A stretch of 64,000 bases of DNA from an archaeon (GTDB lineage Archaea; Nanobdellota; Nanobdellia; SCGC-AAA011-G17; GW2011-AR17), in assembly GCA_018656555.1 (NCBI GenBank), contig JABHZQ010000020.1, forward strand, positions 10,764 to 74,763, written 5' to 3'. Below, one piece after another: positions 15,678 to 28,452 of the stretch; the stretch's first letter is position 1; each line of letters starts with the position of its first letter. Below the pieces are notes generated by a model. That model saw only the letters and a list, made by a program, of their open reading frames with translations. It had not been told where the DNA came from and did not search any database. The position numbers were made by a program, and so were the translations under genes.

Positions 15678-15814
15678 GCCGAGGTGGCACAATCTGGTAC
15701 TGCGCAGATTGTCTTTCTAGGTTGAAAGATAAGTGTAAGCCTGGAAAGAAGTTCTTTTCAAGACTAGATAGCCTGTTTCCTTTGGATATCTGGGTTCGAA
15801 TCCCAGCCTCGGCG
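15678..15814 (+). tRNA. intron-containing tRNA, isotype unresolved by eye
   Basis: Acceptor GCCGAGG/CCTCGGC with discriminator G; D-loop AATCTGGTA; T-arm CTGGG-TTCGAAT-CCCAG. About 137 nt, implying an intron of about 60 nt. No encoded CCA. The 3' end is the att core of the integrated element. Confidence 0.6.
15801..15814. repeat. attL core (tRNA 3' end)
   Basis: tcccagcctcggcg; the extended match also covers the preceding gggttcgaa. Confidence 0.7.
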
Positions 15815-15840
15815 TAATACCTTTATGGCGTCTATCTTGA

Positions 15841-16575
15841 CTATTTCTTCTTAGCCTCCTTGTTTTTGTTTATCTTTGGTTTTTTCTTTTTCCTCCAATC
15901 TGATACTATTTTATCTTTTTTTGCAATCAGTTGGTCTCTTTCTTTTTTTAATTCCTTAGGAATTTCAAATTGTTCATTATATTCTTTATTTGCCCTTCTT
16001 AATTTTGATTCTTCCTCTTTCATTTCTTTATATTCCTTTGTTTTTGTCATTTTTAAGAATGCAGAGGATTTCTTTACCTTGTTTAACTTTGTTCTGAATT
16101 TCTTTTCGTAACTTACCTTTTTCCTACCTAATTTTTTAAGTTCTGGAGAACTTTTTACCATATCTGTGGCTTTATTCCTTATGTTAATCAATTCTGTGTC
16201 TATTTTGGCTAATTCTTCAAGTTTTATAATATCCTTTTTGTTTTTTATTAATGGAATTTTTTTCCAATTTGTTCTTGCGTTTATTCTTAGACCTTCTTTT
16301 GTTGCATAGTATTTCCAATCACTATCTTTTTTGAGCCTTGCGCCCTTTAAATGATGTAAATTTAGCCTGAACTGAACTTCTCCAACTTTTTCATCTTCTG
16401 GTTTTCTTAATATAATCTGATTTTCATCTGCCTTAACTAATAGTTCCATTGTAACCTCATCTTGAGTAGGATTTTTAACCCATTGTAAAGCTCTAAGCCA
16501 CTCTATAGGAACATATACAAAGAACTTTTGCTTTCCCTCATGCCGTCCTTTGTTTTTATATTTCTTCATAACCAT
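15841..16575 (-). CDS. lysine-rich protein, possible AbrB/MazE-like N-terminal DNA-binding domain
   Basis: 244 aa; the N-terminus FFVYVPIEWLRAL...ILRKPED resembles a swapped-hairpin fold; long KE-rich coiled tail. Confidence 0.35.
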   Translation of the reverse strand: MVMKKYKNKGRHEGKQKFFVYVPIEWLRALQWVKNPTQDEVTMELLVKADENQIILRKPEDEKVGEVQFRLNLHHLKGARLKKDSDWKYYATKEGLRINARTNWKKIPLIKNKKDIIKLEELAKIDTELINIRNKATDMVKSSPELKKLGRKKVSYEKKFRTKLNKVKKSSAFLKMTKTKEYKEMKEEESKLRRANKEYNEQFEIPKELKKERDQLIAKKDKIVSDWRKKKKPKINKNKEAKKK

Positions 16576-16577
16576 CT

Positions 16578-16630
16578 TGTAATGTATAAAGCATTACAGC
16601 TATATAAACCTTTCTATTAGGGTATACCCT
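16578..16630. promoter_or_regulatory. divergent control region with palindromic operators
   Basis: Inverted repeat tgtaatg-tataaag-cattaca (16578-16598); perfect 12-bp palindrome agggtataccct (16619-16630); TATA-like tatataaa and ctataaaat serving the two divergent genes. Confidence 0.45.
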
Positions 16631-16684
16631 TTCAAAAAGGGCACACCCCATATTTTAACTATAAAATGTCACATTATATGCACT

Positions 16685-16843
16685 ATGAAAAAAGAAACAT
16701 ACTTGCAGTTTAGAACAACTGAGGATGAAAAGGAATTAATCCTTAACAATATGAGGAAGCAGAGATTTAGAAGTTTTTCTGAATGGGCAAGAATTGTTCT
16801 TATGAATTGTGAGGTAGAAGATGAAACTAACACAATTGGATGA
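16685..16843 (+). CDS. ribbon-helix-helix (CopG-like) regulator, 52 aa (absent from the ORF track)
   Basis: MKKETYLQFRTTEDEKELILNNMRKQRFRSFSEWARIVLMNCE...: a beta strand followed by two helices; TATA about 20 nt upstream. Confidence 0.45.
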   Translation: MKKETYLQFRTTEDEKELILNNMRKQRFRSFSEWARIVLMNCEVEDETNTIG

Positions 16844-26002: not shown

Positions 26003-26046
26003 ATTTAATTAAATAAAAACTAAATATATATTATAAAGGTTTGGAA

Positions 26047-26955
26047 TTAGATAATTAATTTCTTTTGTTCTCTTTCTTTGTTTAGAAGCTCTTCTACTAT
26101 AGGGGGTACTGGAATATCCACTTCTTCACACCATTCATAGACATTTTTAGTTTTCTTGAACATATTACACTTATTACAAGCTAAGACTAGATTGTTATAT
26201 GTATTTGTTCCCCCTTTAGCAACAGCGACAATATGGTCTATACCTAATTTTTCATTACTTCCACAATAAACACAATTTTTATCTCTCTCCTTGATAAGCT
26301 TTTGAACTTTTACAGATATTCCTGAAGGAGATATATGTCCTCTTAATCTTAATCTTCTTTTAGAATGAGATTTGATATCAACCATCCTTCCTTTTTCTGA
26401 CTTTCTATATGCCTCTCTTAACCTAATAACTCTTGGTTGTTTTTCATATATCTTTGCTCGTTCCTTCACTTCTTTGCTCTTATTATACTCTTTTATTCTT
26501 TGAATTACTTTAGGCTTTAATCTATATCTTTTAATGTACTTATCTCTCCTTGCTTTGATTTCTGGTTGTTCTCTATAGGATTTTCTTTTAGCTTTGTACT
26601 CATCTGTTGATTGGTAGAATCTTTGATATATTTTGTTTCTGGCTTTAGTTTCAGGTCTCTGGTTATAGGCTCTTATTTTTTCTTGATTATTAGGATTAGC
26701 TCTGTAATTTCTTTGATGTTCATTCATACGTTCCCTTACTTCAGGTCTTTGGTGGTATTTTCTTGCTTTTTCTTTTACTTCTTCTCTTTGTCTATATTTT
26801 CTTCTTTTCTGTTTAAACTCTTCTGTTTGCCTTTGTTTCTTTCTTCTTACTTTTATTTCTGGTTTCTTTGCTCTTTTCTTATCATAACAAGGTTTACAGA
26901 GTCCCTTAGCATGATACTTATCTTCACTATTACATAGAATACACTCTTTAACCAT
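26047..26955 (-). CDS. HNH endonuclease with N-terminal zinc ribbon and central tandem basic repeats
   Basis: CILCNS...CKPCY; about seven (K/R)xY(x)QRPE(V/I)(K/R)ER-like repeats; C-terminal CVYCGS...GIDHIVAVAKGG...NNLVLACNKCN. Confidence 0.7.
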   Translation of the reverse strand: MVKECILCNSEDKYHAKGLCKPCYDKKRAKKPEIKVRRKKQRQTEEFKQKRRKYRQREEVKEKARKYHQRPEVRERMNEHQRNYRANPNNQEKIRAYNQRPETKARNKIYQRFYQSTDEYKAKRKSYREQPEIKARRDKYIKRYRLKPKVIQRIKEYNKSKEVKERAKIYEKQPRVIRLREAYRKSEKGRMVDIKSHSKRRLRLRGHISPSGISVKVQKLIKERDKNCVYCGSNEKLGIDHIVAVAKGGTNTYNNLVLACNKCNMFKKTKNVYEWCEEVDIPVPPIVEELLNKEREQKKLII

Positions 26956-27124
26956 AAAAAATCAACTTAAATAATTATTTAAAAACTTTTGCTATCACTC
27001 TGTTTACAAATTAAGGTAGGTATATCCTTAATCCTCATCCTCATGTGTAAATCATCACCTAAGGCTAATAATCCAATTTATTGCCAACTATTATTTCAAA
27101 TTCATCTTTTTTTCTTTTCATTTT

Positions 27125-28369
27125 TTATTCCTCCTTATCCTTTTTGAACTCCTTAAACTTTTCAAGGAGCTTAGGATTCTGCATTATTTCCATCATAACT
27201 TGCATGGTTTTGTCAATCTCTTTGTTTTTCATTTCATCGTCCTGGATTGCAATCTCAACAGATAATGGTCGTCCACATTTGTAGCAGTATTTTGCATTAT
27301 ACTCATTTATACTTCCACATCCACAAGCAACTGGTACATTCTTTTCTTCTTCCTTTTTCTTAAGTCCATTCATCTTTAGGAATGCATCTTCAAGCTGTTC
27401 ATTACACAAATGAACATACCTTTTGACCTGTCTTGAACCAATCGACCAGCCAAGATATTTACACAGCAATGCTTCTGTTAGATGAGGAGCAAGTAGGGTG
27501 GCTCTGCTGTGTCTAAACCAGTGGAGATTGTGTTTTTTATCTAAACTAGACTTCTCAAACACTCTGTTAATTAGTTTTTGTGTTCCTTTGTGCATAAGTG
27601 GTTTAAACTTTTGTTGTTTATGTCTACTTTCTCCAACCCACACATAACTTTCTGGATTGTTCTTATATGGATGGATATCTAACCATCTAGTAAGGTATGG
27701 AACTGACTGAGTTACGAATATCTGTCTCATTCCTGTCTTTCCATCAACAATCACACTTGCAGATAGTTTATCCTGTCTTATGTCCTTTATTTTAATGTTT
27801 AACAACTCACCAGCTCTAACTCCAGTTTCGTGTAGGAACTTTAACAAAGCTCTAGTTTTGATGTTTTGAGTCTGTTGAATTACCAATTCAATGTCTTCTT
27901 CTGTTAAGATTGTTGAAGGGTCTATTGGTTCAATTATTTCTCTACTTCTCACACTAAAGATAAACTTGTATAGCTTGTTGAGTTCCAATCTTGTTTCTTC
28001 ATCACACCTAATCAGCCTGTTATCCTCATCCTCGAACCATCGGTAGAATTGTTTAAGAGTTCTCCTGTAATCTGCTTTGGTATTTGGTTTCTGTTTAGTG
28101 TTGTTTTCTATCTTTGCAAGTAATGTAATGACATCCTTCTTGCATAACTTATCAAAATCCACACAAAGCATTATTGCAATGAACTTAAGTTGAGAGATTA
28201 ATTTTCCAATCCTTAAGTCTCCAACACCTCTACTGAACAGGTTATCTGCAAACTCAAGAATGAGTTCTTTGTTCCTATCACTTATATCTGCCTCTTCTAA
28301 GTGCTTCAGTGTGTTTTTGTAATAATTCTTCTTCCCTTGTGCATATATTCTTTTTGAGTCATATACCAT
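27125..28369 (-). CDS. int: tyrosine integrase/recombinase (intact) with C-terminal zinc-ribbon extension
   Basis: LHWFRHSRATLL...LGWSIGSRQVKRYVHL (HxxR...Y); C-terminal CGCGSINEYNAKYCYKCG. Confidence 0.85.
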   Translation of the reverse strand: MVYDSKRIYAQGKKNYYKNTLKHLEEADISDRNKELILEFADNLFSRGVGDLRIGKLISQLKFIAIMLCVDFDKLCKKDVITLLAKIENNTKQKPNTKADYRRTLKQFYRWFEDEDNRLIRCDEETRLELNKLYKFIFSVRSREIIEPIDPSTILTEEDIELVIQQTQNIKTRALLKFLHETGVRAGELLNIKIKDIRQDKLSASVIVDGKTGMRQIFVTQSVPYLTRWLDIHPYKNNPESYVWVGESRHKQQKFKPLMHKGTQKLINRVFEKSSLDKKHNLHWFRHSRATLLAPHLTEALLCKYLGWSIGSRQVKRYVHLCNEQLEDAFLKMNGLKKKEEEKNVPVACGCGSINEYNAKYCYKCGRPLSVEIAIQDDEMKNKEIDKTMQVMMEIMQNPKLLEKFKEFKKDKEE

Positions 28370-28438
28370 TTGTGTTTAAAAGAAATAATCGTATATAGTT
28401 CCTCAGGTATACCCAAATATACGCCTTAGTGGTCTAAT

Positions 28439-28452
28439 TCCCAGCCTCGGCG
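28439..28452. repeat. attR core (partial tRNA 3'-end copy)
   Basis: ggtctaattcccagcctcggcgg resembles the tRNA sequence gggttcgaatcccagcctcggcg (about 22 of 26 positions). Confidence 0.7.

Follow-up and report, generated by a model that had tools for sequence, protein, structure and literature searches.

An integrated element of 12,638 bp, measured from core to core of its flanking repeats, in the chromosome of a Woesearchaeota archaeon retains a terminase module, i.e., a large terminase subunit (TerL) beside a putative small terminase subunit (TerS), and carries no recognizable gene for a capsid, portal, or prohead protease. The element lies in a 64,000-nucleotide (nt) stretch of DNA (GenBank assembly GCA_018656555.1, contig JABHZQ010000020.1, positions 10,764 to 74,763), hereafter referred to as the window; coordinates are those of the window unless they are preceded by the number of another contig (L001, L053, and so forth). 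The element is read here as a satellite with its own terminase, which would most likely package its own DNA into the procapsids of a helper head-tailed virus; helper dependence and excision are inferred, and this reading is given slightly less than an even chance. A first-pass annotation of the same DNA had proposed an insertion into an intron-containing tRNA gene, an intact integrase gene beside the right-hand repeat, a PrimPol-RecA-like replication protein, an iteron cluster, a bona fide TerL, a block of cargo genes, and the lack of capsid, portal, and protease genes. All of these proposals are borne out by the results described below, whereas others, taken up where the evidence on them is given, fared less well.

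Terminase Module and Search for Structural Genes

The TerL protein of the element matches Terminase_6N (1.2e-11) and Terminase_6C (4.7e-5), both above the Pfam cut-off, as well as phrog_2 (1.3e-47), and its sequence matches in the PDB, which include T4 gp17 and P74-26 TerL, cover both the ATPase and the nuclease domain. In alignments, the Walker A motif (SRQIGKST), the Walker B motif (IIDE; hhhDE), and the nuclease residues D272, D328, D413, and D414 are invariant across the clade of close relatives. The closest TerL of an isolated virus is that of the archaeal Halogranum tailed virus 1 (31.7% identity, 6e-55). By these matches and motifs, the protein is a genuine TerL with motifs that are predicted to be catalytically intact.

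The gene in the TerS position, upstream of TerL, encodes a 153-amino acid (aa) protein, for which a full HMMER search of a representative library retrieved 138 relatives and a word-indexed search returned only the protein itself. A profile constructed from 69 of these relatives located a homolog abutting or overlapping TerL in L001, L006, L009, L040, L041, and L096; furthermore, on the virus contig L095 a homolog is located 2 kb upstream of TerL and the portal gene. The single-sequence model of the 153-aa protein is helical (pLDDT 71) and matches no solved fold. On its position and co-occurrence with TerL, the protein is regarded as putatively TerS-like. A coiled-coil and zinc-ribbon protein is encoded within the same module, and its homologs are found in L001 (31% identity), L002, and L096.

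Structural genes were sought with Pfam and PHROGs profiles in 20 open reading frames (ORFs) of the element, down to a length of 52 aa. No annotated match to portal or prohead protease families was obtained, the sole annotated capsid match, in which the coiled-coil segment of the zinc-ribbon protein aligns with phrog_10 (“major head protein”), is non-significant (E 0.018), and no pseudogene fragment of a structural gene was found with either library. On these profile results, a complete head-tailed (Caudoviricetes) provirus was rejected as a candidate. The ORFs of at least 300 aa are those of the PrimPol protein, TerL, an HNH endonuclease, and the integrase only; portal proteins usually exceed 350 aa. 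The absence of a portal gene is firm in these profile searches, and a small capsid protein of very divergent sequence is probably also lacking, although this is not proven. An alternative bearing on this point is that the element is a complete tiny virus with a capsid and a portal too divergent to recognize, for which it may be said that seven ORFs are unannotated and that the predicted structure of the largest of them, a 293-aa protein, is unusable for a fold check (pLDDT 40). Nonetheless, no unassigned ORF exceeds 293 aa, and the three largest are unlikely to be capsid proteins because the 293-aa protein has a hydrophobic N-terminal anchor and two 76-aa internal repeats (2e-11), the 225-aa protein has a lipoprotein-type leader, and the 244-aa protein is lysine-rich and DNA-binding-like. 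To our knowledge, 12.6 kb is also below the genome size of any virus that packages its DNA with a terminase, and the tiny-virus explanation is considered extremely improbable.

Family of Elements Sharing the Terminase

Relatives of TerL were retrieved by a word-indexed search of 5.8 billion protein clusters, which yielded a handful of close ones. All close relatives (49–63% identity) are found in contexts without a portal gene, i.e., one complete 13.1-kb element and several partial contigs. The complete element is carried by L001 (59% TerL identity), a 99-kb archaeal contig with FtsZ and ribosomal protein genes, where it spans 13.09 kb between two copies of the 10-nt repeat TGCATCATAA (L001:5883-5892 and 18972-18981). 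Its genes are arranged in the order of a reverse-strand ORF, an ATPase-type replication gene different from that of the window, the zinc-ribbon homolog, the TerS-position homolog, and TerL, followed by two large secreted proteins, HNH, HNH_3, LemA, and a homologous integrase with a zinc ribbon; no portal gene is present. Among the partial contigs, L006 (56%) harbors a resolvase and a homologous integrase within 2.1 kb after TerL, and the homologous integrase is accordingly present in two close contexts. In L008/L009 (49%), TerL is followed by converging genes of non-viral character, namely methyltransferase, PNPOx, HD, and 2′-5′ RNA-ligase-like genes, and L040 and L096 (55–56%), both contig ends, share the upstream genes and have the TerS-position gene beside TerL. 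By contrast, the distant TerLs (29–38%; L003, L010/L011, and L095) are encoded on virus contigs with a portal gene 0.1–3.3 kb downstream. The two complete elements, of 12.64 and 13.09 kb, differ in length by 4% despite their unlike cargo and replication genes.

At the sensitivity of a pattern scan, no member of the close clade was found in 185,579 GTDB species genomes or in IMG/VR, the latter containing only a relative of 32% identity. A search of JGI metagenomes added one partial close-clade contig (L040), one distant relative of 34% (L041), and one remote match.

These contexts bear directly on the possibility that the element is a decayed provirus, in which a tailed provirus at the tRNA-Ser gene would have lost its head and tail genes and TerL and its neighbor would persist as non-functional relics. 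In favor of decay, TerL otherwise marks tailed viruses, the viral TerLs nearest to it come from archaeal viruses, no excised form of the element was found, and the archaeal precedent NitKor-E1 has been read in this manner (PMC6563490). However, at least four independent contexts, at 49–63% TerL identity and with all catalytic residues intact, repeat the portal-less layout, and the integrase, replication gene, and regulators of the element are intact as well, with no structural pseudogene fragments in Pfam or PHROGs. One-off decay is unlikely because the close TerL relatives are all portal-less and the distant ones are located beside portal genes. Moreover, the replication and cargo modules differ among members while the terminase module is kept, which argues for selection on the terminase, and the recurrence of undamaged motifs, together with a conserved partner gene, where other modules have been exchanged further weakens the relic explanation. 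Decay of a provirus is therefore considered quite unlikely, and a conserved family of capsid-less elements retaining a terminase appears to fit the data better. The first-pass annotation had left the choice between a decayed provirus and a satellite; the former has lost ground, and the latter is still a conjecture.

Two observations on the L001 element concern its site and cargo. It is inserted in a phospholipase D (PLD) gene at the codons of the second HKD motif and truncates this gene; therefore, not all integrases of the family target tRNA genes. Its cargo (L001:11332-15127) comprises a 708-aa secreted protein with beta-helix/NosD, Big_9, and He_PIG domains and a 525-aa secreted protein. 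The slot after TerL is thus occupied by cell-surface proteins in both complete elements, which may matter for an episymbiotic DPANN host.

Integration into tRNA-Ser(GGA)

Site-specific integration into the tRNA-Ser(GGA) gene by a tyrosine recombinase is well supported, owing to a repeat of which no copy is expected by chance, intact tRNA exons, a full catalytic set in the integrase, a homologous right flank, a different occupant of the same site in contig L067, and contig breaks at the borders. The last 14 nt of the tRNA gene (TCCCAGCCTCGGCG), forming the attL core, recur exactly in the attR core as a partial copy of the tRNA 3′ end. This sequence has only these two copies in the window, also when one mismatch is allowed, and none in 100 shuffled windows; together with the polymorphism of the site in L067 and L053, this agrees with the earlier proposal that the repeat is an att sequence and not a chance motif. 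Read directly, the identity runs on past the core as xAAT, giving 18 nt with one mismatch. The similarity that had been proposed on both flanks of the core is otherwise loose: downstream, xAAT is followed by CTTTAT after a 1-nt offset, and the upstream likeness is weak. The predicted junctions for this site read ...GGGTTCGAATCCCAGCCTCGGCGGAATCTTTATAAATTC for attB and ...GTGGTCTAATTCCCAGCCTCGGCGTAATACCTTTATGG for attP.

The 414-aa integrase possesses all of the residues R185, K211, HxxR, W308, and Y318. In an alignment of the integrases of the window, L001, L006, and L067, residues R185, K211, W308, and Y318 and the zinc-ribbon cysteines are invariant, and HxxR is present in three of the four (not in L067). 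The att core is located 70 nt upstream of the integrase start, outside the ORF. By this layout, with an intact integrase gene and an external att sequence, the outcome of integration is of the pNOB8 type, and the integrase itself is matched by the generic families Phage_integrase and phrog_1 only. Integration of the SSV type was rejected, as the integrase is a single intact ORF and is not split at the borders of the element.

The tRNA gene was missed by default ARAGORN and by the whole-window Rfam run; a local Rfam tRNA search recognized 15678-15814 with 35.7 bits against a gathering score of 29. The intron mode of ARAGORN suggested Lys(ttt), a model with an implausible 24-nt variable arm that proved wrong, and constrained folding left the structure of the gene unsettled. 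The question was settled by comparison with the sister species, Candidatus Woesearchaeota archaeon isolate SRP077602_co6_375, whose 97-nt gene (L053:4743-4839) has the anticodon stem CAGGC/GCCTG, the loop CTGGAAA, a 14-nt intron at position 37/38, a 14-nt variable arm, and the discriminator G73, which together identify tRNA-Ser(GGA). The exons of the window gene (15678-15707, 15739-15746, and 15770-15814) are 100% identical to those of the L053 gene, and they are separated by two introns, one of 31 nt in the 5′ strand of the anticodon stem (15708-15738) and one of 23 nt at position 37/38 (15747-15769). In silico splicing yields 83 nt that ARAGORN identifies as tRNA-Ser(gga). Since the exons are identical and the spliced gene is tRNA-Ser(GGA), integration left a complete tRNA at attL. 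As a separate observation, the tRNA-Ser gene has two introns in the window species and one 14-nt intron in the sister species with identical exons, and this difference points to recent gain or loss of an intron at a non-canonical position.

Comparison of contigs indicates that the att site is used repeatedly and that the tRNA-Ser site is polymorphic, because a different element is found in L067 and a repeat-flanked insert in L053. L067 (sample ERZ4200977) belongs to the same species, as judged by its identical LAGLIDADG neighbor, and the sequence diverges directly after the tRNA and TAAT, where another element begins; in L067:1-4362, a 418-aa integrase on the + strand adjoins the tRNA and is followed by a TrmB-like regulator. 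This integrase is 23% identical to that of the window and has the same C-terminal zinc ribbon. In the sister species, the tRNA-Ser gene and an 11-nt partial repeat, CAGCCTCGGCG, enclose a 2.2-kb insert (L053:4840-7072); this insert contains a gene for a MopE-like copper-binding protein and a 143-aa ORF and no integrase, and is probably what is left of a separate integration into this site. Between the two species, homology extends over the right flank from CAGCCTCGGCG to the cyclophilin gene, and CAGCCTCGGCG occupies the place equivalent to attR upstream of the cyclophilin gene. Furthermore, L063 and L066 end at the tRNA and TAAT, 4 nt past the attL core, L048 starts inside the attR core at CCCAGCCTCGGCG, and L102, from the same sample as L048, ends 30 nt past the start of the attR core. 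Contig breaks at both att borders fit the outcome expected from a branching assembly graph in a population that would be polymorphic at this site.

The mobile character of the unit bears on another explanation, namely a split system resembling a gene transfer agent (GTA), in which the head and tail genes would be located elsewhere in the host chromosome or in another element and the present locus would supply terminase and DNA only. The analysis covers 64 kb of the genome, with flanks of ordinary host genes, and such a partner locus could be located beyond it. Nevertheless, the element is flanked by att sequences and its relative in L001 resides at another target, the PLD gene, and a unit moving without its partner genes fits poorly with a split system, which is considered very unlikely.

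Control, Replication, and Cargo Modules

The features of the element and its target are summarized in Table 1. At the left end, a reverse-strand gene for a 244-aa putative regulator and a 52-aa ORF flank a divergent control region. The palindromes that the first-pass annotation had assigned to a CopG/AbrB-like control module are present, whereas the labels themselves derive from sequence patterns: the 52-aa ORF has no profile match in Pfam or PHROGs, and the 244-aa protein has no match in Pfam, PHROGs, PADLOC, or PDB sequences. PDB sequence searches also gave nothing meaningful for the 86-aa and 293-aa ORFs. In the L001 element, a reverse-strand ORF is located at the same position as the 244-aa gene, with no detected sequence similarity. 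The 8-nt palindrome GGTATACC has two copies in the 64 kb, one in the control region (16621-16628) and one between the integrase start codon and attR; the pair may serve as a shared operator that couples integrase expression to the regulator module.

The replication protein combines PrimPol, PriCT_1, and AAA_25 domains, and its PHROGs matches are annotated as DNA primase/helicase; a search of IMG/VR with the PrimPol protein returned nothing. Six of the 13 TAAACTAA sites in the window are concentrated in the adjacent iteron-like cluster. Replication may start from this cluster, as is commonly assumed where a PrimPol-helicase gene is accompanied by adjacent repeats, and the cluster is a candidate replication origin and/or terminase recognition site. 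Two metagenome contigs begin in this region, L043 at the start of the cluster (window 19338) and L046 at 19063, approximately 270 nt upstream of the cluster; the assembly break of L043 fits the presence of repeats there.

Table 1. Features of the integrated element and its tRNA target, in window coordinates.
Feature	Coordinates	Strand	Basis
tRNA-Ser(GGA), class II, integration target, rebuilt intact at attL	15678..15814	+	Rfam, sister-species exons, ARAGORN on spliced sequence
attL core, last 14 nt of the tRNA	15801..15814	+	Exact repeat
Lysine-rich 244-aa protein, putative regulator, AbrB/SpoVT-like N-terminus by sequence pattern	15841..16575	-	
Divergent control region with palindrome AGGGTATACCCT and inverted repeat GTAATG..CATTAC	16576..16684	.	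Repeat scan and sequence
52-aa ORF, ribbon-helix-helix-like by sequence pattern	16685..16843	+	Called in several metagenome copies
Three small ORFs (86 aa; 136 aa; Cys/His-rich, 78-106 aa)	16925..17858	+	Sub-threshold matches only
Replication protein, PrimPol + PriCT_1 + AAA_25 (RecA/DnaB-like) helicase	17855..19588	+	Pfam 8.6e-15, 2.7e-15, 4.3e-28
Iteron-like cluster (385 nt), (G)TAAACTAA in both orientations and 20-nt inverted repeat (19640-19690)	19331..19715	.	Repeat scan
Helical 153-aa protein in TerS position, putative small terminase subunit	19724..20185	+	Position, co-occurrence
Coiled-coil and zinc-ribbon protein (CxxC...CxxC), inside terminase module	20151..20612	+	Weak DZR match
TerL, ATPase and RNase H-like nuclease domains; start probably ATG at 20702	20699..22060	+	Pfam, PHROGs, PDB
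Secreted/membrane protein block	22097..25467	-	Pfam, PHROGs, N-terminal hydrophobic segments
HNH_3 nuclease domain, then transmembrane helix and Cys-rich tail	25508..26002	-	HNH_3 1e-6
HNH endonuclease, basic repeat-rich N-terminus	26047..26955	-	HNH 2.3e-11; phrog_2118 6e-17
Tyrosine integrase, 414 aa, intact, C-terminal zinc ribbon	27125..28369	-	Phage_integrase 4e-17; phrog_1 2.7e-25
Integrase upstream region and attP-derived arm, with second GGTATACC (28406-28413)	28370..28438	.	Sequence
attR core, partial copy of the tRNA 3′ end	28439..28452	+	Exact repeat

The cargo block encodes the signal-anchored 293-aa protein, an Excalibur lipoprotein, the 225-aa lipoprotein, an Imm_superinfect protein, a DUF4190 protein, and a 53-aa membrane peptide. 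Two nuclease genes follow. The HNH_3 protein is weakly similar to the HNH_3 gene product at the same position in the L001 element, and the larger HNH endonuclease shows weak repeat similarity to L001:15129-15935. The architecture of the HNH_3 protein is unusual, as its Cys-rich C-terminus has weak Pfam matches to scorpion toxin, arthropod defensin, and gamma-thionin (E 0.003-0.01). A PADLOC scan for defense systems yielded generic HNH matches (ZorE and PtuB) and a coiled-coil match to LmuB only, corresponding to no described system. Regarding base composition, the element genes had been described as richer in both C and A than the host genes; A is higher (0.389 vs 0.365) and T lower (0.283 vs 0.316), the shift being within one standard deviation among host genes, whereas C is not higher (0.123 vs 0.129).

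The gene content of these modules is relevant to the idea of an integrative plasmid with a re-purposed terminase, which would spread or persist without virions and in which TerL, the TerS-position protein, and the HNH nucleases might resolve replication concatemers or, as a defense to the benefit of both host and element, disrupt the packaging of tailed viruses that infect the cell. The plasmid-like replication module, the Imm-type superinfection and membrane proteins among the cargo, the two HNH nucleases, and the absence of the TerL family from IMG/VR are in line with this idea. On the other hand, no known defense system was matched by PADLOC beyond generic HNH domains, the full set of ATPase motor and nuclease motifs is conserved although mere interference would not need it, and a terminase complex is unreported in non-viral mobile elements (PMC6563490). 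A re-purposed terminase is therefore considered unlikely, although it retains some weight.

Proposed Mechanism

The preferred reading, a satellite that carries its own terminase, is suggested by an integrase with att sequences, an own replication module, a packaging determinant (the TerS-position gene and TerL), and the lack of structural genes. In the proposed mechanism, the integrase would recombine attP with the last 14 nt of the tRNA-Ser(GGA) gene, restoring an intact tRNA at attL and leaving the partial copy at attR. Upon excision, the circle would be copied by the PrimPol-helicase of the element, starting at the adjacent iteron cluster. The terminase module, i.e., the TerS-position protein and TerL, would subsequently cut the replicated element DNA and pump it into procapsids of a co-infecting head-tailed virus, such that the satellite would bring its own terminase and take only the shell and tail from its helper. 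The cargo, with its secreted and membrane proteins and the Imm-type superinfection protein, probably alters the host surface or excludes other viruses. Packaging is favored because it is the simplest function needing both the motor and the nuclease.

A bolder proposal is that the element, together with its relatives in L001, L006, L009, L040, and L096, constitutes the first satellite family of head-tailed archaeal viruses, with a complete terminase of its own (TerS-like protein and TerL), no capsid, and docking of the terminase on the portal of the helper, a strategy that would be undescribed in any domain of life. This proposal is put forward as a possibility and is, in our judgment, somewhat doubtful.

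Several points weigh against the satellite reading. No helper virus was identified, and no known satellite type has TerL without capsid genes, so that the mechanism is without experimental precedent. The first-pass annotation had proposed to look in related genomes for an empty att site; neighbor searches via the sigma-70, LAGLIDADG, and integrase proteins recovered no unoccupied attB, only occupied sites, one of them with an alternative occupant, and the border breaks. The attP junction or excised circle was not found, with none in IMG/VR, and every integrase-bearing contig shows attR. All metagenome copies of the element are 100% identical and therefore provide no direct evidence that it has moved recently. 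The 153-aa protein in the TerS position has no match to an annotated family in Pfam or PHROGs, a PDB sequence, a fold, or a GenBank phage. Capsid proteins of divergent sequence could go unnoticed in profile searches, although none of the ORFs has the size of a portal protein. Finally, only two complete members of the family are available.

Comparison with Known Elements

The nearest counterpart is NitKor-E1 of Ca. Nitrosopumilus koreensis AR1, which encodes TerS, TerL, and an integrase and nothing else of viral character, and whose role has been termed “enigmatic” and the element “likely a relic” (Krupovic et al., 2019; PMC6563490). Compared by description only, both are archaeal integrated elements with a tyrosine integrase, in which TerS and TerL, or in the present element TerL and the TerS-position gene, are the sole tailed-virus genes. 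They differ in their hosts (Thaumarchaeota and DPANN, respectively) and in cargo, which in NitKor-E1 consists of VapBC and a PD-(D/E)XK nuclease; moreover, NitKor-E1 is a single case that was read as a relic, whereas the present element belongs to a recurrent family with conserved motifs.

Among bacterial satellites, the phage-inducible chromosomal islands (PICIs), including the Staphylococcus aureus pathogenicity islands (SaPIs), resemble the element in their size of approximately 12–15 kb, an integrase with att sequences, a divergent regulator pair, a primase-helicase with an adjacent origin, a packaging gene, cargo, and the absence of capsid genes. However, PICIs carry TerS (or a cos site) only and borrow the TerL of their helper, whereas the window element carries TerL itself. 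The capsid-forming PICIs (cf-PICIs) are satellites with their own TerS, TerL, and HNH nuclease (10.1101/2025.02.19.639094). The own TerL and HNH nuclease are shared with the window element; in contrast, cf-PICIs also encode capsid, portal, protease, and head-tail adaptor proteins and steal tails only, and none of these genes is present in the window element.

In archaea, only pSSVx and pSSVi had been described as satellites, to which the SRCEs of spindle-shaped viruses were added (Zhou et al., 2025; 10.1101/2025.02.15.638363), and NMV2S is a putative 3.8-kb satellite of an Asgard siphovirus, without a terminase (2026 preprint). Similar to the window element, pSSVx, pSSVi, and the SRCEs are archaeal and combine a plasmid-type replication module with an incomplete morphogenetic module; unlike it, they parasitize spindle-shaped viruses and carry an AAA+ ATPase and/or a spindle-virus capsid protein, whereas the window element has the terminase of a head-tailed virus. 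Head-tailed archaeal viruses, such as Halogranum tailed virus 1, possess a homologous TerL, and the virus contigs L003, L010, and L095 share the TerL lineage, L095 also the TerS-position gene; however, these viruses have larger genomes and a portal gene downstream of TerL. The tycheposons of Prochlorococcus, reportedly described by Hackl and colleagues in 2023, are said to be marine elements that integrate at tRNA genes and possess tyrosine recombinases, replication modules of the primase-helicase kind, and cargo that varies; a satellite-like nature has been proposed for some of them. They are bacterial, and we know of no conserved TerL-only packaging module in them.

A keyword search of open-access papers, which could miss a report, found none of a conserved TerL-only family or of a TerL-bearing satellite without capsid genes. 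As judged from the sequences compared here, a lone terminase as a conserved family trait appears to be new among archaeal cryptic integrated or satellite-like elements.

Host and Neighboring Genes

The host is assigned to the marine Woesearchaeota (DPANN) because of the synteny with the Woesearchaeota sister species and because several matching contigs originate from Saanich Inlet samples (SI47jul10, 150 and 200 m). Synteny is kept in the right flank, where the cyclophilin and sigma-70 proteins are 95% and 80% identical, respectively. Proteins of this region bear the NCBI locus tag prefix HOD38. The rRNA operon of the window is archaeal, with the large subunit gene at 685-3597, a spacer tRNA-Ala, and the small subunit gene at 3868-5338, as determined with Rfam and ARAGORN over the 64 kb. 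The G+C content of the window is approximately 32%, and that of the element is no different from that of the host.

Two neighboring genes deserve mention in their own right. A free-standing LAGLIDADG_3 homing-endonuclease-like ORF (14978-15652, + strand) stops 25 nt upstream of the tRNA gene and is not found at that place in the sister species. A sigma-70 family gene (29063-29956, + strand), with Pfam regions 1.2, 2, 3, and 4, adjoins the cyclophilin gene in this archaeal chromosome. Its homolog in the metagenome-assembled genome (MAG) of the sister Woesearchaeota species has the same synteny, weaker homologs occur in other Woesearchaeota and in Pacearchaeota MAGs, and the nearest bacterial RpoD is approximately 46% identical.

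Implications

A terminase gene is taken as the mark of a tailed virus, and the sole earlier archaeal case without capsid genes was set aside as a relic; a conserved arrangement with an intact enzyme turns this oddity into a testable class of elements. If the elements are satellites, their DNA is expected in virus particles, which is the strongest prediction of this reading, and they would join a very short list comprising pSSVx, pSSVi, the proposed SRCEs, and the one putative satellite of an Asgard siphovirus. They would then exploit a virus in a manner that is new, and would add one more level to the nested parasitism in DPANN archaea, symbionts in their own right. Otherwise, the terminase motor would have to serve a non-viral purpose. 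In either case, provirus calls based on TerL alone would misclassify such elements.

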